Assembly (NCBI GenBank): GCA_963771275.1
Contig: CAVYSW010000003.1
Span: 992,001 to 1,056,000, forward strand
From: an uncultured Gemmatimonadales bacterium
Lineage (GTDB): Bacteria; Gemmatimonadota; Gemmatimonadetes; Gemmatimonadales; GWC2-71-9
Length of the DNA: 64,000 nt
Direction of reading: 5' to 3'
The notes below the pieces were generated by a model. That model did no database searches, was not told the DNA's origin, and saw nothing but the letters and a program-made list of their open reading frames with translations. A program made the position numbers and the translations under genes. Below are positions 1-9,626 of the stretch, piece by piece; positions within the stretch are counted from its first letter, which is position 1; every line of letters starts with the position of its first letter.

Positions 1-1
1 C

Positions 2-217
2 GGCACGATCGCGCGCAACGACGCCGGCCGGTTTCGCATCACGGACCTCAAGGTGATCCTCTCGCCCGCCGTCGCGCACGCGGACCGCGAGCGGATCCAC
101 CGCTGCGTGACGCTGTTCGAGGATTTCTGCATCGTCACCGCCTCGGTGCGCCAGGGAATCCCGGTCCACGTGGAGGTGGCGCCGACCGAGGCCCAACGGG
201 ACGCGGGGGCTGCGTGA
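2..217 (+). CDS. OsmC-family protein, C-terminal part (truncated by window edge)
   Basis: Frame 2 reads ...RIHRCVTLFEDFCIVTASVRQGIPVHVEV...*; stop overlaps next GTG start (GTGA). Confidence 0.75.
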   Translation, partial: GTIARNDAGRFRITDLKVILSPAVAHADRERIHRCVTLFEDFCIVTASVRQGIPVHVEVAPTEAQRDAGAA

Positions 218-1146
218 CGGAGCGCTCGGGGCGCCCCGTAGTCGTCGGCGTCGATGCCTCGCCCGCCGCGCGTGACGCGGCGCGCATGGGATGGGCGTTG
301 GCGCAGGCGACCGGTGCCACGTGCCGGCTGGTGCACGCGACCCCGGAAGCCTGGACGGTGCCCACGGTCCCGCACAGCTTCGCGGCGCAGCCGGACGCCG
401 TGAACGAGGCCAGCCGGCAGGCGGCGCGTGCCCTCGTGCTCGAAGTGCTCGCCGGCAACGTCCCGGACCACCTGGTGGCCGAGCTGGAGGTGCGCACCGG
501 CCGCGCAGCGGCGGCACTGCGGGACGCGGCCGCCGAGCTCGCCGCCGAAGTTGTCGTCCTGGGCGGCAAGCACCACTCCGTGCTCGGCCGGTGGGTGGTC
601 GGCAGCACCGCGCATACGCTCGTCCGCAGCCTCGACCTGCCGCTCCTGGTCACGGCGCATACGCCGCTTCCCGTCTTGCAGGTCGTGGCGGCGATCGATC
701 TCTCCGACGCGGCGGCGCCCACGATCCGCGCCGCCGAGCGCTATGCGGGGCTGTTCGGTGCCGCGCTGCACGTGCTGCACGTGGTGGAGCCGCTCCCGCT
801 GGTGCCCGACGCTCCGCTGCACTTCAACGACGAGGAGGTGTACCGGCGCTCGATCGAGCACCTGGAGCAGTACGTCTGGCCGCTCGTGACCTATCCCGGA
901 GCGACCACGGGGGTAACCCGCGGCCCGGCCCGGGACGGTATCGCGGCCGAGGTGGCCGCGCGGGAGGCCCAGCTCGTCGTGCTCGGCTCGCACGGCAAGG
1001 GCTGGGCGGACCGCATTCTGATTGGCAGCGTGACGGAGCGCGTGCTCGACATGCCCCCCTGCTCGATGCTGATCGTCCCCGTCCCCGGTCCGGTAGGCCA
1101 CCGGAAGGCGCGGGACAAGCGAGCGGACCATGGACCGGTTCTTTAG
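214..1146 (+). CDS. Tandem-domain universal stress protein
   Basis: Two USP domains: VVVGVDAS...VVVLGGKHHS...GSTA and VAAIDLS...LVVLGSHG...GSVTERVL. Confidence 0.9.
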   Translation: MTERSGRPVVVGVDASPAARDAARMGWALAQATGATCRLVHATPEAWTVPTVPHSFAAQPDAVNEASRQAARALVLEVLAGNVPDHLVAELEVRTGRAAAALRDAAAELAAEVVVLGGKHHSVLGRWVVGSTAHTLVRSLDLPLLVTAHTPLPVLQVVAAIDLSDAAAPTIRAAERYAGLFGAALHVLHVVEPLPLVPDAPLHFNDEEVYRRSIEHLEQYVWPLVTYPGATTGVTRGPARDGIAAEVAAREAQLVVLGSHGKGWADRILIGSVTERVLDMPPCSMLIVPVPGPVGHRKARDKRADHGPVL

Positions 1147-1220
1147 TCAGGGGTGGTCTTTAGGTTCTTCATTAACCAGCCCCTAGCTTCGAACCGTACC
1201 CGCAAGTAGTTTCATGGCAT

Positions 1221-2456
1221 ATGGTTGCGCGCCGGTCTCCAGCGGCAGACGCCGACCGACTCAAGCGGTTGGTTCAGGCGGGAATTCGCGTGACCGCCGA
1301 GCGCTCGCTCGATGCGGTGCTCCAGACCGTGGCGGACAGCGCGCGGGAGTTGACCGACGCGCGCTACGCGGCGTTGGGCGTGCTCGACCTCACTGGCACC
1401 GAGCTGAGCCGCTTCGTCACCAGTGGCATGCCCGCGGAGCAAGCGCGGCTGATCGGTGCGCCGCCCACCGGCAAGGGCGTGCTCGGCCTGCTCATCGGCC
1501 GACCCCGGCCGCTGCGGATCGAAGACCTCACCACGCATCCCCAGGCCCACGGCTTTCCGCCCGGGCACCCGCCGATGACGTCCTTCCTCGGCGTGCCGAT
1601 CATGGGCCGCAAGGGCCCGATCGGGAACCTCTACCTCACGGACAAGGCCTCGGCCAAGGGCTTCACCGCGGAGGACGAGACGATCGTGACGCTGCTCGCC
1701 GCGCAGGCGGCGGTCGCCCTCGAGAACGCGTCGTTGTACGAGGACAGCCAGCGGCTGATTCACGAAGTGAAGGCGATGCAGGCGGCGCGCGACCGGTTCT
1801 TCGCGATGATCAATCACGAGCTGCGGAACGCGCTCACTGCCGTGTACGGCTGGGCGGACCTGCTGCTCCGCAAGCTCGGGCCCGATGCGCCGCGCTCGGC
1901 CCGGGAGGTGTACGAGTCGGCCGAGCGGACGCTCGCCCTGCTGAACGACCTGCTCGACCTGAGCCGGCTCGAGGCGGAGCGGCTGCGTCCCGTGGTGCGC
2001 AGCACCGACGCCGGCACGCTGATGGAGGATGCGATCGCCGCGCTCGAGCCGTCGGCCGAGAAGCGCGCGATCCGCATCGAGACCGTCGGGGTGACCGACA
2101 TCGTCGCCTGCCAGACCGACCCCCAGCGGGTACGGCAGATCCTGATCAACCTGCTCAGCAACGCCGTGCGTCATAGCCCCGCCGCGGGGGTGGTCACCGT
2201 GGCGCTGCGAGCCGATGACCGGCGCCTGCGGTTCGATGTGATCGACCGGGGCCCGGGGATCCCGGCTGCCGAGCAGGCCCTGATCTTCGAAGCGTTCGCC
2301 CGCGCGGGGACGTCGGACGAGCGTGGGACCGGCCTGGGACTCACCCTCTCGCGTCAGCTCGCGCTCCTCCTGGGCGGCGATCTCCGTGTCATCAGCGAAG
2401 TTGGGACCGGCGCGACGTTCACGCTCGACATCCCTCGCTGGTACGGAACGAGTTAA
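1221..2456 (+). CDS. GAF-domain sensor histidine kinase (DosS/DevS-like GAF plus HisKA/HATPase)
   Basis: GAF motif GKGVLGLLI...HPQAHGFPPGHPPMTSFLGVPI; H-box NHELRNAL; N-box NLLSNA; G-boxes DRGPGI and GTGLGL. Confidence 0.9.
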   Translation: MVARRSPAADADRLKRLVQAGIRVTAERSLDAVLQTVADSARELTDARYAALGVLDLTGTELSRFVTSGMPAEQARLIGAPPTGKGVLGLLIGRPRPLRIEDLTTHPQAHGFPPGHPPMTSFLGVPIMGRKGPIGNLYLTDKASAKGFTAEDETIVTLLAAQAAVALENASLYEDSQRLIHEVKAMQAARDRFFAMINHELRNALTAVYGWADLLLRKLGPDAPRSAREVYESAERTLALLNDLLDLSRLEAERLRPVVRSTDAGTLMEDAIAALEPSAEKRAIRIETVGVTDIVACQTDPQRVRQILINLLSNAVRHSPAAGVVTVALRADDRRLRFDVIDRGPGIPAAEQALIFEAFARAGTSDERGTGLGLTLSRQLALLLGGDLRVISEVGTGATFTLDIPRWYGTS

Positions 2457-2515
2457 AGATCGTTTCACGGAACGTTTAAAGTCGGATCACCGAAGCCATC
2501 TACCTTAAGGAAACG

Positions 2516-3208
2516 ATGCGGATTCTCGTCGTGGAGGACGATCGTAAGGTCGCCGGCTTCATTGAAATGGGGCTGCGGGAGGAAGGCTACGCCGTCGATC
2601 TGGCGCGCGACGGCGACGAGGCCATCGTCCTGGCCCACGTGAACGACTACGACGCGATCCTGCTCGACTTGATGCTCCCCAAGAAGAACGGCCTCCAAGT
2701 CGCGGCCGAGCTGCGTCGCGAGGGTCGCACGACCCCGATCCTCATGCTCACCGCGCGTGATGCCACGGAAGACGTGGTGCGCGGGCTGGACGCGGGCGCC
2801 GACGACTATCTCGCGAAGCCGTTCAAGTTCGACGAGCTGCTGGCCCGTCTGCGGGCGCTGGTGCGCCGCGGCGGGGCGACGCGGGTCGAGCGTCTGACCG
2901 CCGGCCCGCTCGAGCTCGACCGCCTGAAACACCAGGCGTACGCCGGGGGCAAGGCGCTCGACCTCACGCCCCGGGAGTTCCAGCTGCTCGAGCATTTCAT
3001 GATGCACAAGGACGACGTCGTCCGCCGCACCGAGTTGCTCGAGAAGGTCTGGGACATGCACTTCGACCCCGAGAGCAACGTGGTGGACGTGCATGTGGGC
3101 AACTTGCGGCGCAAGCTCCGCGAAGCCGGGTTCGAGGACCTCATCAAGACCGTGCGCGGTGTGGGGTTCCGACTGAACGGCTCCGGTACGACGAGTCCCG
3201 CCTCCTGA
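2516..3208 (+). CDS. OmpR/PhoB-family response regulator
   Basis: MRILVVEDD, LLDLMLP, GADDYLAKPF, winged-helix end VVDVHVGNLRRK...TVRGVGF; AAGGA RBS. Confidence 0.93.
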   Translation: MRILVVEDDRKVAGFIEMGLREEGYAVDLARDGDEAIVLAHVNDYDAILLDLMLPKKNGLQVAAELRREGRTTPILMLTARDATEDVVRGLDAGADDYLAKPFKFDELLARLRALVRRGGATRVERLTAGPLELDRLKHQAYAGGKALDLTPREFQLLEHFMMHKDDVVRRTELLEKVWDMHFDPESNVVDVHVGNLRRKLREAGFEDLIKTVRGVGFRLNGSGTTSPAS

Positions 3209-3215
3209 GCAGCTG

Positions 3216-4616
3216 ATGCAGTCCCTGCGCCGCACGCTCTCCGTGCGGTTTTCGCTCACCATGTTCGCCGCACTCCTGGTGATCGCCCTGTGGGCGTACC
3301 TGGGAGCGCGGCGCGTGCTGCGGGAGGAGCTCGACCGCGGCCTGGCGGCGTCCGCCCACCTCGAGTCCGCGGTGCTCGCCGCCGGCTACCGCATCCCGCC
3401 GCTCTCGAGCCAGCGCGACTCCGAGGAGTTCGTGGAGGCGGTGAACCGCTACGTCGTGGTGCGCGACGCCGCGGGACGGGTGCTCGCCACCAACACGCCG
3501 CTCGCCGCCGGCCTGCCGTACGACCCGGCGAAGCTCGCCATCGCCGTGCAGGGAGGCACGGCCTGGGAGACGGCGACCTGGGGACCGGGCAGCGTGCGCT
3601 CCGTGTATCTCGGGGTCGCGCACGAGCGGGCGGGCGATGCCCGGGTAGTTCAGGTGAGCGCGTCGCTCGCGCCGATCGACACCGAGCGCCGCCAGATGCT
3701 GCTGCTCATGCTGGGCACGGTCGTGCTCGGCACCGTCGCGGCGATGCTGGGCGGGGGGTGGCTGGCGCGCTCGGCGGTGGCTCCCGTGGCCGAGATCGCC
3801 GCCCAGACGAACGCCGTCGCGGCGGGGGCGGTGGGGCAGCGCATCACGGCGCATGCGGAAGTGGAGGAGTTCAACGGGCTCGTCGCCGTGCTGAACCGCA
3901 TGCTCGAGCGGCTCGACCGTGGCCTGCTGGCCCAGCGACGGATCATCGCGGACGTGGGCCACGACCTCCGCACTCCGCTCACGGCCATGCGCGGCGAGGC
4001 CGAGGTGGCGCTGCGCAACCCGCGCTCGCCGGAGCAGTATCAGCGGATCCTCGCCAGCCTGCTCGAGGAGATCGACCACCTCGGCACGATCAGCGACACG
4101 CTGCTGCTGCTCGCGCGCATCGAGGCGGGCGACCTCGCGCTGCACTGCCTGGACACCGACGTGGGCGACCTCGTGACGCGCGCCGTCCAGCGGGTACGCC
4201 AGCGGGCGACCGATCATCCCTTCACCTACGCACCCACCACCGACGGCCTCGGGTCGGCGGCGCTCGACGGGCGGATGGTCTCGCTCGTGCTCGACCACCT
4301 GCTGGACAACGCGGTGCGGCACACGCCGCCCGGCACCCCGGTCACCGTGTCCGTGCAGGCCGACGCCGATGCGGCCAGTGTCACCGTGGAGGACGCGGGA
4401 CCGGGCGTTTCGGATGACATCCTGCCGCACCTCTTCGAGCGGTTCTACCGGGGCGACGCCGCGCGCGGGCGGGGCGCCGGGGCGGGCCTCGGTCTCACCG
4501 TGGCCGCCGCGATCGTGCACGCGCACAGCGGCACGATCTCCGCCAGCCGGGCCGAGAGCGGCGGGCTCCGGGTGACCGTCCGCCTGCCGCGCTGCGACGG
4601 GCCGGGGACGGCCTGA
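3216..4616 (+). CDS. Membrane-bound HAMP sensor histidine kinase
   Basis: Two TM helices, HAMP, H-box GHDLRTPLT, LDNAVRH, FERFYRGD, GAGLGL. Confidence 0.92.
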   Translation: MQSLRRTLSVRFSLTMFAALLVIALWAYLGARRVLREELDRGLAASAHLESAVLAAGYRIPPLSSQRDSEEFVEAVNRYVVVRDAAGRVLATNTPLAAGLPYDPAKLAIAVQGGTAWETATWGPGSVRSVYLGVAHERAGDARVVQVSASLAPIDTERRQMLLLMLGTVVLGTVAAMLGGGWLARSAVAPVAEIAAQTNAVAAGAVGQRITAHAEVEEFNGLVAVLNRMLERLDRGLLAQRRIIADVGHDLRTPLTAMRGEAEVALRNPRSPEQYQRILASLLEEIDHLGTISDTLLLLARIEAGDLALHCLDTDVGDLVTRAVQRVRQRATDHPFTYAPTTDGLGSAALDGRMVSLVLDHLLDNAVRHTPPGTPVTVSVQADADAASVTVEDAGPGVSDDILPHLFERFYRGDAARGRGAGAGLGLTVAAAIVHAHSGTISASRAESGGLRVTVRLPRCDGPGTA

Positions 4617-4623
4617 GCCCAGT

Positions 4624-4661
4624 CTTACCACTTTTTCACGGGCCCTTACTGAGGATTTCAC
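4624..4661 (+). promoter_or_regulatory. Phased YTYAC direct-repeat array, putative OmpR-family binding site
   Basis: CTTAC 4624, TTCAC 4635, CTTAC 4645, TTCAC 4657 (10-12 bp period) upstream of the cytochrome-porin cluster. Confidence 0.5.
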
Positions 4662-4707
4662 CCGGCCCGCATGAACTTGCGGGTCGACGCAGGCATTCGG
4701 AGTCCGC

Positions 4708-4935
4708 ATGGCCAGGAACGTGAGCTCGCTTGACGCGTGCATCCGCGGCATCGTCGCCGTGGGTCTCGTCGTGTTCGGCGTGGCCTCTCACGGGACCGAG
4801 ATCCTCTCGTTCGGCGCCGTGCTCGTGGGCATCGTCCTGATGGCCACGGCGCTCACGCGCGAGTGCCCGTTCTATCGCGCCTTCCGCCTCCACACCCAGC
4901 GCCCGGGCACGGCCCCGGGATCCCGCCGGGACTGA
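4708..4935 (+). CDS. DUF2892/YgaP-like small membrane protein
   Basis: RNVSSLDACIR, two TM helices, TALTRECPFY signature. Confidence 0.8.
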   Translation: MARNVSSLDACIRGIVAVGLVVFGVASHGTEILSFGAVLVGIVLMATALTRECPFYRAFRLHTQRPGTAPGSRRD

Positions 4936-4961
4936 GCCCGGCTTTCTCGCAAGGAGCCCTC

Positions 4962-6161
4962 ATGCGGACAGTGCTCATCACTGCCCTGGCCGCGGCCTCG
5001 CTCGCCGCCGCCGCGACCCCGGCACAGGCGATCCCCGCGTTCGCGCGCAAGTACGCCGTGAGCTGCAACCTGTGCCACAACCCGATCCCGCGACTGACCG
5101 CGTTCGGGCAGAGCTTCGCCGCGAACGGGTACCGCATGGCCTCGCAGGAGCCGGCGCGCGACACGGTCGATACCGGAGATCCGCTCCTCACCCTCCTGCG
5201 CAGCACGCCCATCGCCCTGCGCCTCGACGCGTACGCCCAGGCCTATACCGAGGGCAACGCGGTAACCGACTTCGCAACGCCGTACGGGTTGAAGCTGCTC
5301 TCGGGCGGCGCGATCTCGTCGCAGCTCTCCTACTACCTCTATTTCTTCCTGCTCGAGCGGGGCGAGATCGGCGGGATCGAGGACGCCTTCGTCTCCGTGA
5401 ACGACATCGGCAACATCCCGCTCGACCTCACGGTCGGCCAGTTCCAGGTATCGGACCCGATCTTCAAGCGCGAGCTGCGCCTCGAGATCGACGACTACGC
5501 GATGTACCGCGTCCACGTGGGCGCCGAGCCCACCGACCTGACGTACGACCGCGGACTACTGGGATCGGTGGACGTCGCGGGCTTCACGCTCAGCGCCGAA
5601 GTGATCAACGGCACGGGGAAACAGCCCGCGCAGGCGAACATGCGGTTCGACAACGACAACTTCAAGAACCTGTTCGGCCACCTGCGCCGCGCGATCACGC
5701 CCAGCGTCCAGCTCGGCGCCATGGGCTACTACGGCAAGACGCGCGGCACCACCGAAGGCTCTCGGGACACGATCGTCAACCGGGTGTGGATGGTGGGCGG
5801 CGACCTCACCGTCCGGGCGGGGCCCGTGGAGCTCAACGCGCAGGTGATTCACCGCGAGGACGACGCGCCGCTGTTCACCGCCGGGGACTCGACCGTGACC
5901 ACCAACGGCGGGTTCGCGGAGCTCGTCGTGACCCCGCCGCGGAGCCGCTGGTACGGCTACGCGCTGTACAACTACATTGACGCGAGCGCGCCGCTGCTCG
6001 ACGTCGGGCTCGGCGGCCCCGCCGCCCTCAAGCGCTACCAGACGGCGGCGAGCGGTCTGGGGTACCTGATGCGCCGCAACGTCCGGGTTTACGGCGAGGC
6101 AACCTACGACATCGAGCAGAAGAACGGGAGATTCAGCCTCGGGTTGACGGCCGGATTCTGA
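4962..6161 (+). CDS. Cyc2-like fused monoheme cytochrome c-outer membrane porin
   Basis: Signal peptide (AQA), IPAFARKYAVSCNLCH...PRLTAFGQSFAANGY (single CxxCH), amphipathic beta-strand C-terminus ending in F; AAGGAG RBS before ATG 4962. Confidence 0.8.
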   Translation: MRTVLITALAAASLAAAATPAQAIPAFARKYAVSCNLCHNPIPRLTAFGQSFAANGYRMASQEPARDTVDTGDPLLTLLRSTPIALRLDAYAQAYTEGNAVTDFATPYGLKLLSGGAISSQLSYYLYFFLLERGEIGGIEDAFVSVNDIGNIPLDLTVGQFQVSDPIFKRELRLEIDDYAMYRVHVGAEPTDLTYDRGLLGSVDVAGFTLSAEVINGTGKQPAQANMRFDNDNFKNLFGHLRRAITPSVQLGAMGYYGKTRGTTEGSRDTIVNRVWMVGGDLTVRAGPVELNAQVIHREDDAPLFTAGDSTVTTNGGFAELVVTPPRSRWYGYALYNYIDASAPLLDVGLGGPAALKRYQTAASGLGYLMRRNVRVYGEATYDIEQKNGRFSLGLTAGF

Positions 6162-6192
6162 CCGGCAGCAGCCACCCTGCCGGCGTCTTTCC

Positions 6193-6223
6193 AACGGGAT
6201 GGCCTCCGCGAGGCCATCCCGTT
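6193..6223 (+). terminator. Intergenic 14-bp stem-loop (terminator or mRNA-stabilising element)
   Basis: AACGGGATGGCCTC-cgc-GAGGCCATCCCGTT perfect inverted repeat. Confidence 0.65.
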
Positions 6224-6280
6224 ACATCTTCATGTTCCTGGCCGGGTGTGCCCGGCCGTTCAACCCACTCCGAGGTGATC

Positions 6281-6670
6281 ATGCGCTCGCTGGTATTCGT
6301 TCTCGTGGCCGCGCTCGCGGTACCCGTTGCCGCCGCGGCACAGGCAAAGGACTCGCTGCCGCCGGGTGTGACGTCCGCGATGCTCAAGGAAGGGAAGACG
6401 CTGTTCGCCGGCGCGGGCATCTGCGCGGCCTGCCACGGCACGGACGCCAAGGGCATGCCGGGGATGGGGGCGAATCTCACGGACAACAAGTGGCTGCACA
6501 GCGACGGCTCGTACGACGCGATCGTGAAGCAGATCATGACCGGCGTCTCCTCCAGCGAGTCCTCGTCGGGGGCCGCGATGCCGCCGAAGGGCGGCAGCGC
6601 GCTGACCGACGCGCAGGTGAAGGCGGTTGCCGCCTACGTGTGGAGCCTCAGCCACCCCGGGACGAAGTAA
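6281..6670 (+). CDS. Periplasmic monoheme c-type cytochrome (class I, CcoP-like domain)
   Basis: Signal peptide AAA-QA, CAACH, GANLTDNKWLH, distal Met in AAMPPKG; GAGGTG RBS. Confidence 0.88.
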   Translation: MRSLVFVLVAALAVPVAAAAQAKDSLPPGVTSAMLKEGKTLFAGAGICAACHGTDAKGMPGMGANLTDNKWLHSDGSYDAIVKQIMTGVSSSESSSGAAMPPKGGSALTDAQVKAVAAYVWSLSHPGTK

Positions 6671-6673
6671 CGC

Positions 6674-7780
6674 ATGATGGACGCCCGGCGGCGGCGCGTC
6701 GCGCTCACCGCGGCGCTGCTCGCCGTCTGCGCCCGACCCGCCGCGGCGCAGATCCAGCTGCCCGAAGGTGTCTCCGTGCGGCTGTCCGCGCTGCTGGAGA
6801 CCCAGTTCAACACGACATCGGTGGACTCCGCCGCCGGCGCGGCCGTGCCCGCGAGCGAGTTCGCGATCCGGCGGGCGCGCGTCACCTTCGACCTGAAGGT
6901 CGGTGACTTCCTCTCGGCGCGCTTCGAGCCCGATTACAACATCTACTCGAGCAGCACGGGCGCGGGGACCTTCTCCCTCCGCGACGGTTGGGTGCGGGCG
7001 ACGTTCGGTCCCGCGCTGCGGGCGACGCTGGGGCAGTTCAAGCGCCCGTTCGATCTCTTCCAGCTCACCGCCGCGAGTCAGCTGCTGGTGATCGAGCGCA
7101 CCGGAGCCGTGCGGGGCACGGCGTGCGGGGCGCTGCCGTCGGTGTGCTCGTTCAGCACCCTCACCGCGGGCCTGCTCTACGCCGACCGGGACGTCGGCGT
7201 CATGCTGGACGGCGAAGTGGTCGCCGGGCGAATCCGCTACGCCGCCGCGCTCACCAACGGCCGGCCGCCCAACCAGCGGGAGAACAGCAGCAACAAGTCA
7301 TACACCGGCCGAGTGTCGGTCCGCCCGGCGAAGGACGTCCTGCTGAGCGCGAACGCCGCCTACAAGGACTACGCGCACCCGACGAGTGGCGCGCAGACGT
7401 TCGCCACGGCGTGGGGCGCCGATGTTGAGCTCGGCAGCTACACTCGCGGACTGCACGTGCAGGCGGGGCTCGTGGGGGGCGACGACTGGCTGGTGGCAGC
7501 CGGTCCCCAGGACGTCGCACGGTTCTTCGCGATGCAGGCGATCGTGACGTACAAGGCGCCGGTGCGCCACAAGCGGATCACGAGCATCGAGCCGGTCGTC
7601 CGAGCGAGTTGGGCCGACCCGGACACCGACACGGCCGGCGACGACGGCTGGCTGCTCACCCCCGGGCTCAACGTGTATCTTGGGGGCCGGAACGTGCTGC
7701 TCACCGACGTCGACGTGTGGACCCCACATGTGGGGGCAACGCAGTATTCACTCAAGACGCAGTGGAATTTCTACTTCTAA
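6674..7780 (+). CDS. Outer membrane porin (OprO/OprP-like)
   Basis: Signal peptide, FAIRRAR, LRDGWV, LGQFKRPF, DRDVGVML motifs; C-terminal QWNFYF. Confidence 0.8.
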   Translation: MMDARRRRVALTAALLAVCARPAAAQIQLPEGVSVRLSALLETQFNTTSVDSAAGAAVPASEFAIRRARVTFDLKVGDFLSARFEPDYNIYSSSTGAGTFSLRDGWVRATFGPALRATLGQFKRPFDLFQLTAASQLLVIERTGAVRGTACGALPSVCSFSTLTAGLLYADRDVGVMLDGEVVAGRIRYAAALTNGRPPNQRENSSNKSYTGRVSVRPAKDVLLSANAAYKDYAHPTSGAQTFATAWGADVELGSYTRGLHVQAGLVGGDDWLVAAGPQDVARFFAMQAIVTYKAPVRHKRITSIEPVVRASWADPDTDTAGDDGWLLTPGLNVYLGGRNVLLTDVDVWTPHVGATQYSLKTQWNFYF

Positions 7781-7802
7781 CCTTCAGACGAGGCGACACA
7801 TC

Positions 7803-8252
7803 ATGAGTAGGCGCAGTCTTGCGGCATCGTCGGTCCTGCTCGCACTCGCGTTCAGTGCGTGCAAGGGTGGGGAGAAGGCTCAGGAGCAGCAGGCGGCTCC
7901 GGAAGCGGCGGCGCCATCACAGACCGCGGCCATCCCCGCCGGCGAGCTTCCGCCCGGCGTCACCCAGGCCTTGGTGGACGAGGGCAACACGCTGTTCCAC
8001 GGGGCCGGGCTCTGCGCGACGTGTCACGGCGCCGACGGCAAGGGCGTACCGGGACTCGGCGCCAATCTCACCGACAGCACGTGGCTCCACAGCGATGGCT
8101 CGTACGACGCCATCGTGAAGCAGGTCATCGAGGGCGTGCCGGCGAACGTCTCCACCTCGGGGGCCGCGATGCCGGCCAAGGGTGGCTCGAGCCTCACGGA
8201 CGACCAGGTCAAGGCGGTCGCCTCGTACGTCTGGAGCCTGAGCAAGAAGTAG
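7803..8252 (+). CDS. Lipoprotein monoheme c-type cytochrome, paralog of 6281..6670
   Basis: Lipobox AFSAC, Ala/Pro/Gln linker, CATCH, GANLTDSTWLHSDGSYDAIVKQ, AAMPAKG. Confidence 0.88.
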   Translation: MSRRSLAASSVLLALAFSACKGGEKAQEQQAAPEAAAPSQTAAIPAGELPPGVTQALVDEGNTLFHGAGLCATCHGADGKGVPGLGANLTDSTWLHSDGSYDAIVKQVIEGVPANVSTSGAAMPAKGGSSLTDDQVKAVASYVWSLSKK

Positions 8253-8273
8253 CCGTCGCCACAGCGGTCGGGC

Positions 8274-8300
8274 CGGCCGGTTGCCGCAGCGAACCGGCCG
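8274..8300. terminator. Hairpin between convergent genes
   Basis: CGGCCGGTT...AACCGGCCG inverted repeat. Confidence 0.5.
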
Positions 8301-8335
8301 ACCCTCACCGTGCGACGTGCCCGGAGCGCGCAGCG

Positions 8336-9550
8336 TCAGCTGCCGCACACCTCCGTGGCGTTGTACCGCGTGAAACCCATCGGGCCCCATTGCAGGAACA
8401 TGGCGGACCGACCACCCTCGGCGCTCCGCACGGGCAGCAGCGTCTGGACGAAGTGCCGCGACGTGCTCTCCATGCGGTGCCACAGCCTCGCCGACTGCTC
8501 TTGCCGGACGATCGCCGCCTGCGGCACGCCGCTCGGCTCGCCCGTCAGCGGATTCAGCGGCGTTACCGTGAGCCGGCCGTCGGCGCGGAAGTCGCGCCGG
8601 TACTCGCCGCTCCGCGTGAGCACGTCGGTCTGCCAGAGGCTCACCGACCCCTGGATGTCGATGTACTTGTCGCCGTTCGGATTGCAGATCGGCTTCGGCG
8701 CCACGATGTCGTACGGCAGCGTGATGCGCTGCTCGAACGCGCCCGGCTGCAGGGGCACCGCGGCGGCAACCTGCAGGATCGTGGCGTTCCCGTCGTTCGG
8801 GATCCCAACAGGATCGGTCGCGACGTACCCCGGATTCCCCGTCACGATGTACTTGAGGTCGCCGGGCAGGGCGTTGAACAGCTGCGGAATGATCGTCCGG
8901 AACGTCGGCGCATCCGTGATGGGACCCGTCCCGCCCGCGGGTCCACCAAGCCCGCCGCGGATGAAGTCGGCGAAGACCAGCGTCTCCGCCAGCTCCCAGG
9001 AGAGCACCTGGTGGTCCGCCGTGCCCGGAATCAGGATCTCGAAATGCGCGTTGCCGACGGTATGGTCGCCGGCCGGGAACAGGCGCAGGTGCACGCGTGC
9101 GGGCTGGTAGTCACCACAGCTCAGCTGGATCACCGATCCCGCCCACTTGTCGCTCGCGAACGTCACCTGCTCGTCGCCGCCGAGCGCATCCTGCCACGTA
9201 CAGGTGAACGCCGCGAGGGGCGCGAGGGCCGGATCGATGGCGCCGAGCCCGCTGCGGTCGCCGTTGAGGCTCATCAGCGCCGCGCGGATGTTCAGCGGGC
9301 CCGCGTTGCCCGTGAAGATCAGGTTGATGGGATCCTGATTGTCTGACTGATAGTGGTTGAGGGTGTAGGGAAGGAACTCGATGCCGTCTGCCATCACCAA
9401 ACCCGCGGGCGCCGGATACGTCGCCCGATGCAGCTCGGCGTCGGGCGCGTCCGTCGCCACCGGGTTGCGGTCGTCGGTACAACCGATCGAGACCGCCAAC
9501 GTCAGGCCGGCCACCACGCCGACCGCCCGTCCTGCCAGATTGCCACGCAT
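8336..9550 (-). CDS. Hypothetical lipoprotein
   Basis: Lipobox VSIGC, GGAGGAGG RBS, coding-like codon usage; no family recognised. Confidence 0.75.
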   Translation of the reverse strand: MRGNLAGRAVGVVAGLTLAVSIGCTDDRNPVATDAPDAELHRATYPAPAGLVMADGIEFLPYTLNHYQSDNQDPINLIFTGNAGPLNIRAALMSLNGDRSGLGAIDPALAPLAAFTCTWQDALGGDEQVTFASDKWAGSVIQLSCGDYQPARVHLRLFPAGDHTVGNAHFEILIPGTADHQVLSWELAETLVFADFIRGGLGGPAGGTGPITDAPTFRTIIPQLFNALPGDLKYIVTGNPGYVATDPVGIPNDGNATILQVAAAVPLQPGAFEQRITLPYDIVAPKPICNPNGDKYIDIQGSVSLWQTDVLTRSGEYRRDFRADGRLTVTPLNPLTGEPSGVPQAAIVRQEQSARLWHRMESTSRHFVQTLLPVRSAEGGRSAMFLQWGPMGFTRYNATEVCGS

Positions 9551-9594
9551 GACCGCCTCCTCCGAGAGAGTGTGCTGCCAGGGAGTCGGCGGGA

Positions 9595-9626
9595 ACGCTA
9601 CGGAAGGACCGTCAAGCGGGCGTCAA
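9595..9626 (-). promoter_or_regulatory. SARP-type promoter: heptamer repeats plus -10 element
   Basis: Minus strand TTGACGC-ccgc-TTGACGG-8 nt-TAGCGT, upstream of the lipoprotein gene and overlapping the end of the SARP gene. Confidence 0.65.

Follow-up and report, generated by a model that had tools for sequence, protein, structure and literature searches.

A Cyc2-family cytochrome-porin and its recurring cytochrome c neighbour in Gemmatimonadales, a candidate route for low-oxygen electron uptake

The window described here is a 64,000-nucleotide stretch of contig CAVYSW010000003.1 from an uncultured Gemmatimonadales bacterium, whose genome measures 3.86 Mb and is 96.7% complete. Within it, five co-oriented open reading frames spanning positions 4708-8252, all verified in the sequence, form a cassette whose second gene encodes P0002; by sequence and structural model, P0002 is a genuine member of the Cyc2 family, in which a monohaem cytochrome c is fused to a porin. 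Across the phylum, the recurring unit is Cyc2 together with the soluble cytochrome cytA, set within a wider cassette of the order kinase-YgaP-(Cyc2)-cytA-(porin)-(lipoprotein cytochrome). We give roughly even odds (probability about 0.5) to the reading that electrons are taken up at low oxygen through Cyc2 and passed into terminal respiratory enzymes of a heterotroph, with Fe(II) as the probable donor. The haem-sensor and regulator genes upstream of the cassette and its promoter box, which a preliminary description of this DNA omitted, point to a tie with low-oxygen respiration; what is added here is a candidate regulon (haem-GAF kinase, OmpR-type regulator and TTCAC box) and a tie to N2O and O2 reductases in relatives. 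The gene inventory of that description holds, with all five genes present and their domain matches as claimed:

4708-4935, + strand: YgaP-like small membrane protein (DUF2892), 75 aa, cassette gene 1; PF11127, E 9e-15
4962-6161, + strand: P0002, Cyc2-family fused monohaem cytochrome c / 16-strand porin, 399 aa; Cyc2 consensus and model
6281-6670, + strand: cytA, predicted soluble periplasmic class I monohaem cytochrome c, 129 aa; PF00034
6674-7780, + strand: porin2, OprO/P-type anion porin, 368 aa; Porin_O_P PF07396, E 5.7e-8
7803-8252, + strand: cytB, predicted lipoprotein monohaem cytochrome c, 149 aa; PF00034, lipobox-like Cys by eye

P0002 as a Cyc2-family protein

Keffer et al. (PMC8406198) define Cyc2 by a signal peptide, the motif AXPXFAR[Q/K][T/Y], a single CXXCH followed by PXL, a minimum length of 365 aa, and an OprO/P-like barrel of 16 strands. 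Signal peptides of the cassette proteins were assigned by eye, and the leader of P0002 is hydrophobic and ends in AQA. The strict consensus lies just upstream of a single CXXCH, which is followed by PXL; the protein as a whole bears PAFARK..CNLCH..PRL..G..F..GY, ends in Phe, and at 399 aa exceeds the length threshold that we used (at least 365-375 aa). Of the 3502 genes called in the genome, 2 match a relaxed form of the consensus; 20 rounds of protein shuffling produced no match. Among the top 119 homologues of P0002, all have a single CxxCH and end in F or Y; the strict consensus is present in 28, rising to 113 if Arg is allowed and the leading Ala dropped. CxxCH is also retained in 45 of 46 full-length distant representatives, which answers the conservation check that the preliminary description had proposed, and the motif would be expected to attach haem.

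The AlphaFold2 model of P0002 (pLDDT 92.4, pTM 0.90) comprises a short helical N-terminal domain and 16 strands. Motif, length, single haem site, and this OprP-like fold together bear out the Cyc2 signature and barrel first read from the sequence. In a fold search of 48,161 chains, OprP was the top match, with a Z-score of 24.7 (next 23.5) and an rmsd of 3.2 over 296 residues; Foldseek ranked OmpT first and OprP second. OprP is the template that Keffer et al. name for the Cyc2 barrel (PMC8406198). There was no solved Cyc2 among the matches of the fold searches, no Pfam or NCBIfam model matched P0002 at E<=0.1, and the sequence search of the PDB returned a single weak match (6qvm, E 0.06). The model would place P0002 in the outer membrane. 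Its conserved lumen-facing positions number 12 acidic and 6 basic by a rough strand-parity estimate made without coordinates, in line with a cation-friendly pore and comparable to the acidic cavity modelled for the Cyc2 of Ghiorsea (PMC13692758).

P0002 likely belongs to Cyc2 cluster 3, an assignment made from the N-terminal motif rather than from FeGenie hidden Markov models or a reference tree, because it is predicted to begin, once mature, with x-P-x-F-A-R-K-Y, as does Cyt572, a cluster 3 protein validated as an iron oxidase, whose N-terminus was read by Edman sequencing (PMC13741234). The motif begins at the predicted signal-peptidase cut (5031-5060), with Ala at position -1 in 68/84 distant and 57/118 close homologues, and there is no second His or Met conserved across distant homologues. 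In cytochrome f, the free N-terminal amine serves as the sixth haem ligand, and by analogy the free amine of P0002 could do the same, against which stand the extra residues found at that point in many close homologues. For Cyc2 haem in general, published models have one ligand and electron paramagnetic resonance indicates two (PMC13692758, PMC13741234).

The family is large, with 2336 matches among 8000 scored candidates and 768 representatives (50% identity, E<=1e-10). Named homologues come from Gemmatimonadales and Gemmatimonadota; the subfamily also has members in clusters from Aminicenantota and Bacteroidota and in records from Krumholzibacteria and Calditrichaceae. The orthologue has a patchy distribution, with matches at E<=1e-40 in 49 of the 401 genomes of the phylum that were compared. 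Loci were examined in 44 of the 48 other carriers, G069, G081, G082, and G330 being left out, and the low-GC loci L033, L034, L139, L145-L150, and L152 were excluded from the counts. The gene is not new to Gemmatimonadota, to which P0002 adds another member: cyc2 had already been reported in metagenome-assembled genomes (MAGs) of the phylum, in which oxidation and reduction could not be distinguished (PMC11316326, PMC10367259). The lineage claim of the preliminary description is therefore weaker than it was put.

Several observations on related proteins stand apart from this assignment. Apparent fusions of 720 aa at L052, L056, and L088 were rejected, the extra part overlapping an opposite-strand LysR-type gene of sister loci and the usual signal peptide lying inside. 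The genome encodes a second Cyc2, P0125 (469 aa, FARQT-type motif, G000:C3:644700-646106, or L036:8701-10107 on the minus strand), flanked by M16 peptidases and a peptidase fragment, with no cytochrome neighbour; it has 5258 homologues at E<=1e-10 among 8000 scored and no matching Pfam or NCBIfam model. In profile-profile alignment with P0002, only the N-terminal 107 residues align (probability 98.5), and the two are therefore distant subfamilies; P0125 is presumably nearer the cluster 2 type. A secreted protein of 357 aa (G000:C9:109740-110810, or L161:9741-10811, minus strand) has a single CxxCH near its N-terminus and matches no Pfam or NCBIfam model; from its sequence, it may be a third and different cytochrome-barrel fusion.

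The adjacent cytochrome and the modular cassette

cytA lies directly after Cyc2 in 19 of the 42 phylum loci having downstream sequence, across three families (f1, f2, and f4), and the adjacency recurs in varied surroundings, often without regulator genes. Its closest solved relative is CcoP (E 1e-15), and its AlphaFold2 model has a pLDDT of 89.6. A Met that is invariant in 36 Cyc2-adjacent homologues makes His/Met ligation of the haem likely and suits cytA to a carrier role towards oxidases. From this sequence evidence, cytA is the probable electron acceptor of Cyc2. A complex prediction of Cyc2, two haems, and cytA scored 0.16 against a mark of 0.32, and we count it neither way.

The second cytochrome, cytB, shares 74% identity with cytA across 99 aa and by this measure is its duplicate. 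Sister genera carry in the cytB position a different lipoprotein cytochrome (3cp5-like, E 8e-18) that is unrelated to cytB. Both c-type cytochromes of the preliminary description are present, and they are paralogues.

The orthologue also occurs in other settings. Distant orthologues (L032, L136, and L142-L144, and L255, L262, and L263 of family f10) lie directly downstream of a cytochrome with 4-5 haems, and those of f10 lie upstream of genes for 11-23-haem proteins and Rieske/cytochrome b proteins. In genus g13 (L232, L233, L236, L238, and L249), there is no adjacent cytA, the neighbours being TerC, LysR, RtcB, and tandem rhodanese genes, and a weaker form of the promoter box described below is found about 82 nt upstream.

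porin2 follows a different distribution. It is found within 8 kb of a Cyc2 orthologue in 2 of 44 phylum loci, and its family, present in 124/401 genomes, is much commoner than the orthologue. Among the 30 best porin2-family loci, 8 adjoin pst genes (PstS confirmed in three, the rest by sequence likeness) and 7 adjoin cytA without an adjacent Cyc2. The RR and GQFK anion-channel motifs of porin2 are common to the pst-operon copies and to nearly all porins in a 33-sequence tree; in that tree, whose backbone is weak, the cassette copies fall into at least two supported clades, one of them shared with pst and dnaK-locus copies. Within genus g1, porin2 follows cytA in all four other orthologue-bearing genomes and cytB is present in three; the porin2 copy of G005 is a 78-aa remnant. 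porin2 is probably, on this evidence of sequence and neighbourhood, a co-regulated accessory outside the electron path, and its rarity near the orthologue, its travelling with cytA without Cyc2, and its relatives in pst operons tell against the proposed part in a relay.

The YgaP-like gene follows the kinase gene in cassettes both with and without Cyc2, and the kinase-YgaP-cytA cassette is present without Cyc2 in many genomes. Because porin2 is rarely near Cyc2, cytB is a duplicate of cytA, and the families travel separately, Cyc2 plus cytA is the recurring unit. The idea of the five genes as one conduit is not supported, and they form a modular set instead. Nor do they resemble an MtrCAB- or Pcc-type conduit: all three cassette cytochromes have one CxxCH, P0002 is 16-stranded, and porin2 is of the OprO/P type. 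Of the electron relay first proposed, a likely hand-off from Cyc2 to cytA is supported and a dedicated five-part relay is not; the synteny that was to accompany it is kept in full order in the genus, and beyond the genus only cytA recurs beside Cyc2.

Regulatory unit and neighbouring terminal enzymes

Upstream of the cassette lies a co-oriented set of regulatory genes and sites:

214-1146, + strand: tandem universal stress protein (Usp), part of a surrounding stress/low-oxygen island; PF00582, E 1e-39
1221-2456, + strand: DevS/DosS-like GAF histidine kinase, likely haem O2/redox sensor; GAF matches to DevS-family structures
2462-2490, + strand: weaker promoter-box copy before the response regulator; position weight matrix (PWM) score 17.8, 54 nt before the start
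2516-3208, + strand: OmpR-family response regulator; PF00072 and PF00486
3216-4616, + strand: membrane HAMP histidine kinase (second kinase); domain matches, TIGR01386 at 216 bits, below cut-off
4625-4661, + strand: promoter box, TTCAC-N6-TTnC-N7-TTCAC direct repeats at 11-bp period (4635-4661, with an extra repeat at 4625); conserved pattern and PWM

The GAF domain of the first kinase matches solved DevS-family domains (2vzw, E 5e-40; DevS 2w3d, E 6e-38) and keeps the GFPxxHP.M motif with an aligned His, which we take to be the DevS haem ligand; by sequence the kinase is of the DevS/DosS type, and it is likely a haem-based O2 or redox sensor. The strict motif was found in 10 of the 19 Cyc2 loci tested. 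The best NCBIfam match of the response regulator is the heavy-metal regulator TIGR01387 (230 bits, below the 279 cut-off), and that of the second kinase is TIGR01386, whose cut-off is 293.

Between the second kinase and the YgaP gene is a triple direct repeat, TTCAC-N6-TTnC-N7-TTCA, with an 11-bp period. The pattern is present in 25 of 27 post-kinase regions, some of them from close kin or from a genome already represented, compared with a mean of 0.14 and a maximum of 2 in 500 dinucleotide shuffles. OmpR/PhoB boxes have such a direct-repeat layout, and from this likeness the box is likely an OmpR/PhoB-type binding site for the five-gene cassette. A PWM built from the box has 32 matches in the genome, 26 of them intergenic, and the site in the window ranks first; further sites lie ahead of the response regulator gene, of an 8-haem/4Fe-4S/NrfD operon, and of genes for a Tll0287 haem protein, a CBS protein, and thioredoxin. 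The copy at 2462-2490 raises the possibility that the response regulator is autoregulated. The regulator that acts on this site and the nature of the signal, O2 or a metal, are our inference. With the pstS promoter scoring -2.4, we did not favour assigning the box to a pho regulon; a sigma-70 scan of 1-9600 found no promoter.

In two relatives, G307 and G164, one gene run comprises COX1 (with COX2), a GAF kinase, a regulator, a kinase, Cyc2, cytA, a lipoprotein cytochrome, a Sec-type (clade II) nosZ, and nosD. The haem-copper oxidase in these runs would be ba3-like, judged from its short subunit II. A cytA cassette without Cyc2 precedes nosZ in five further genomes (G189, G371, G100, G014, and G321). 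nosZ is present in 34 of 48 Cyc2-bearing genomes against 129 of 352 others, and within the family in 26 of 31 Cyc2 carriers against 64 of 134 others, in both comparisons with kin that are not independent. Genes for Usp, CBS, Hsp20, MgtC, RtcB, COX, or nosZ lie within 8 kb in 18 of 44 loci.

The genome under study encodes a caa3-type oxidase, a NorBC-like pair, and an alternative-complex-III-like operon. RuBisCO large chain and CdhC had no match in it at 96.7% completeness; the reductive tricarboxylic acid and 3-hydroxypropionate pathways were not searched. It also holds a dissimilatory sulfate-reduction cluster at G000:C3:1360000-1399999 (L158, L159), alongside the caa3-type oxidase, dsrA being present in 4 of 7 genomes of the genus, and a large cluster of multihaem, cytochrome b, and beta-barrel genes at G000:C3:268000-300500 (L153, L154).

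Around the cassette, the Usp gene is unchanged in position in relatives of the genus, and genes for OsmC, archease, RtcB, CBS, and MgtC/DUF4010 lie just beyond the window. An AAGGAG sits 7 nt 5' of the P0002 ATG, and in the four larger cassette genes differences from genus relatives are highest at third codon positions (0.40-0.53 versus 0.17-0.33). A plasmid search gave no match. A 404-aa putative lipoprotein gene at 8336-9550 on the minus strand, convergent with the cassette and without a Pfam or NCBIfam match, lies beside the cassette in G002 too.

Electron uptake, its alternatives, and known systems

In the mechanism that we favour, an extracellular reductant that is small and soluble, with Fe(II) in solution as the most plausible choice, would enter the pore of P0002 and reduce the haem plug. 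P0002 would hand the electrons to the adjacent soluble cytA, which would carry them, directly or via cytB, its membrane-anchored paralogue, to a terminal enzyme. That enzyme would be the caa3-type oxidase or the NO reductase in the present genome; relatives would use a small-subunit haem-copper oxidase or an N2O reductase of clade II. The cassette would be transcribed from the OmpR-type repeat-box promoter and switched on at low oxygen, probably by the haem-GAF kinase and the response regulator. What a heterotroph would gain from it is additional energy from respiration at redox boundaries, not autotrophic iron lithotrophy. The family membership, fold, gene order, promoter box, and sensor homology on which this scheme draws are computational observations. 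To them we add by inference the transfer from Cyc2 to cytA, its direction, and the donor; for the last, a cluster 3 Cyc2 of Nitrospirota oxidised Fe(II) when expressed in E. coli (PMC13647500).

A number of points weigh against this scheme. Adjacent cytA is missing in 23 of the 42 loci, and the cytA family is much commoner than the P0002 orthologue (220 versus 49 of 401 genomes). Of 44 loci, only 2 have Cyc2 and nosZ in a common gene run and 26 lack any low-oxygen marker; the search of this genome found no nosZ match. The genome is rich in reductive machinery, with DsrAB, AprAB, QmoC, and DsrMK above cut-off and large multihaem clusters. The regulator and second kinase are closest to heavy-metal systems, though below cut-offs; the PWM scan did not find the box in the norC and coxB promoters of this genome; and of 41 non-training genomes only 4 have a box scoring at least 15 immediately before Cyc2, against 12 of 646 controls. 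Redox potentials of Cyc2 proteins range from -130 to +560 mV (PMC13692758), and therefore the direction of electron flow is not readable from the family. Cluster 3 is the cluster whose function is most uncertain according to Keffer et al. (PMC8406198), and FeGenie, which labels it probable oxidation/possible reduction, notes its presence in iron reducers (PMC7005843).

The opposite direction is the alternative that fares best, and we still think it improbable: under anoxia, cytA would feed P0002, which would reduce extracellular acceptors, namely soluble Fe(III) chelates, humic quinones, or metal oxyanions. The host, a facultative anaerobe, has Dsr/Apr/Qmo genes and is rich in multihaem proteins, which would suit such export; the orthologue stands among multihaem and cytochrome b genes in G079, G061, and G076, and the occurrence of cluster 3 cyc2 in iron reducers (PMC7005843) and the -130 mV potential of one Cyc2 (PMC13692758) are in keeping with it. 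However, the common partner is a class I cytochrome of the His/Met type, akin to oxidase donors, the cassette adjoins terminal acceptor enzymes in several relatives, and the Cyc2 proteins assayed in the cited papers oxidise Fe(II) (PMC8406198, PMC13692758, PMC13647500, PMC13741234).

P0002 might instead handle metals, as a redox-active pore that alters the oxidation state of Cu, Mn, or Fe so that the metal can be taken up or detoxified; it would be under metal-sensing two-component control and would serve nearby copper enzymes. The likeness of the regulator and second kinase to TIGR01387 and TIGR01386 suits this idea, as do neighbours within 8 kb: of the 44 loci, 5 have a P-type ATPase there, 4 have TerC, and 1 has a DtxR-type regulator. 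NosZ and the oxidases, moreover, need copper. We nevertheless consider it quite unlikely: both scores are under the family cut-offs, a haem-GAF kinase belongs to the unit, and the annotated PWM targets (the 8-haem/NrfD operon, Tll0287, CBS, and thioredoxin) include no metal efflux gene.

Mere co-regulation, with P0002 a haem-gated channel or redox buffer that lacks a dedicated partner and was inserted into an existing cytA cassette, strikes us as very unlikely. It would explain the many cassettes without Cyc2, the orthologues without adjacent cytA, and the lack of a conserved second His or Met in diverse homologues, but the Cyc2-cytA adjacency is repeated in families f1, f2, and f4 in varied surroundings, and distant orthologues recruit another cytochrome, with 4-5 haems, in the adjacent position. 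Least credible of all, and highly improbable in our view, is a five-gene surface-to-periplasm relay with two porins and cytB possibly on the cell surface; the gene order kept in g1 and the 7 further genomes in which porin2 adjoins cytA indicate that some cassette link is real, whereas the pst-type channel motifs, the scatter of cassette copies over more than one clade of a weakly resolved tree, the G005 remnant, and the 2/44 count stand against it.

A narrower version of electron uptake, in which a Gemmatimonadales Cyc2-cytochrome c cassette under a DosS-like sensor feeds extracellular Fe(II) electrons to N2O reductase and a high-affinity oxidase, appears doubtful to us, at about the level of electron export. 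Gemmatimonadales are among the commonest carriers of clade II nosZ; were this version true, they would be heterotrophic iron oxidisers consuming N2O at redox boundaries, with the full run in G164 and G307 and the present genome ending on O2 or NO. Neither such a regulon nor a link between cyc2 and N2O or O2 reductases is described in the literature searched, including the available parts of PMC7029218 and 10.1101/2020.09.22.307553; for the N2O link, it is a search that the spelling of Fe(II) may defeat. We likewise found no paper on a cluster 3 cyc2 of a heterotroph that does not oxidise iron, and published supplements may already place the subfamily.

Cyc2 homologues outside known iron oxidisers are mostly without assigned function, yet they are widely counted as metagenomic markers of iron oxidation. 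This subfamily offers candidates for the partner cytochrome, the promoter box, and the sensor, and some relatives add a terminal reductase to the same run; therefore the direction, donor, and inducing signal are testable by short recombinant experiments. Should the link to N2O reductase prove true, iron cycling would be tied to a sink for a greenhouse gas in a phylum widespread in soils and sediments; its failure would warn against calling such genes iron oxidases.

Among known systems, the Cyc2 proteins of Acidithiobacillus ferrooxidans (cluster 2), Mariprofundus PV-1, and Ghiorsea TAG-1 (cluster 1) share with P0002 the motif, single CXXCH, PXL, length above 365 aa, and barrel (PMC8406198), as well as an adjacent periplasmic cytochrome as presumed acceptor. 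Unlike them, P0002 is found in a host with sulfate-reduction genes and without a RuBisCO or CdhC match; its subfamily is compact (about 400 aa), its partner is monohaem whereas Cyc1 is dihaem, and it is placed behind a haem-GAF/OmpR regulatory unit. With Cyt572 of Leptospirillum (cluster 3), P0002 shares the x-P-x-F-A-R-K-Y start directly after the signal peptidase site, but it is much shorter (399 versus 570 aa) and its host is a neutrophile. FeGenie-called cyc2 has also been reported from Aminicenantes and Krumholzibacteria MAGs.

The sensor resembles mycobacterial DevS/DosS-DosT, whose family its GAF domain matches at E 5e-40 to 6e-38. It differs from them in that a single GAF is joined to the HisKA kinase, the paired regulator is OmpR-type where DosR is NarL-type, and the candidate site is a direct-repeat box. 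Usp, CBS, Hsp20, and phosphoribosyltransferase neighbours are typical content of the DosR hypoxia regulon, whereas the targets here include outer-membrane and periplasmic cytochromes. As in clade II (Sec-dependent) nos clusters, a 3cp5-type lipoprotein cytochrome precedes nosZ and nosD in relatives; unlike the usual clusters, Cyc2 and cytA join the same run in G164 and G307, and in the present genome, which has no nosZ match, the cytA duplicate fills the lipoprotein slot. Finally, porin2, which resembles the OprO/OprP phosphate porins, matches PF07396 and, weakly, the ExtI family of Geobacter (NF040900, 35 bits, cut-off 150); in contrast to these porins, it sits in a respiratory cassette.

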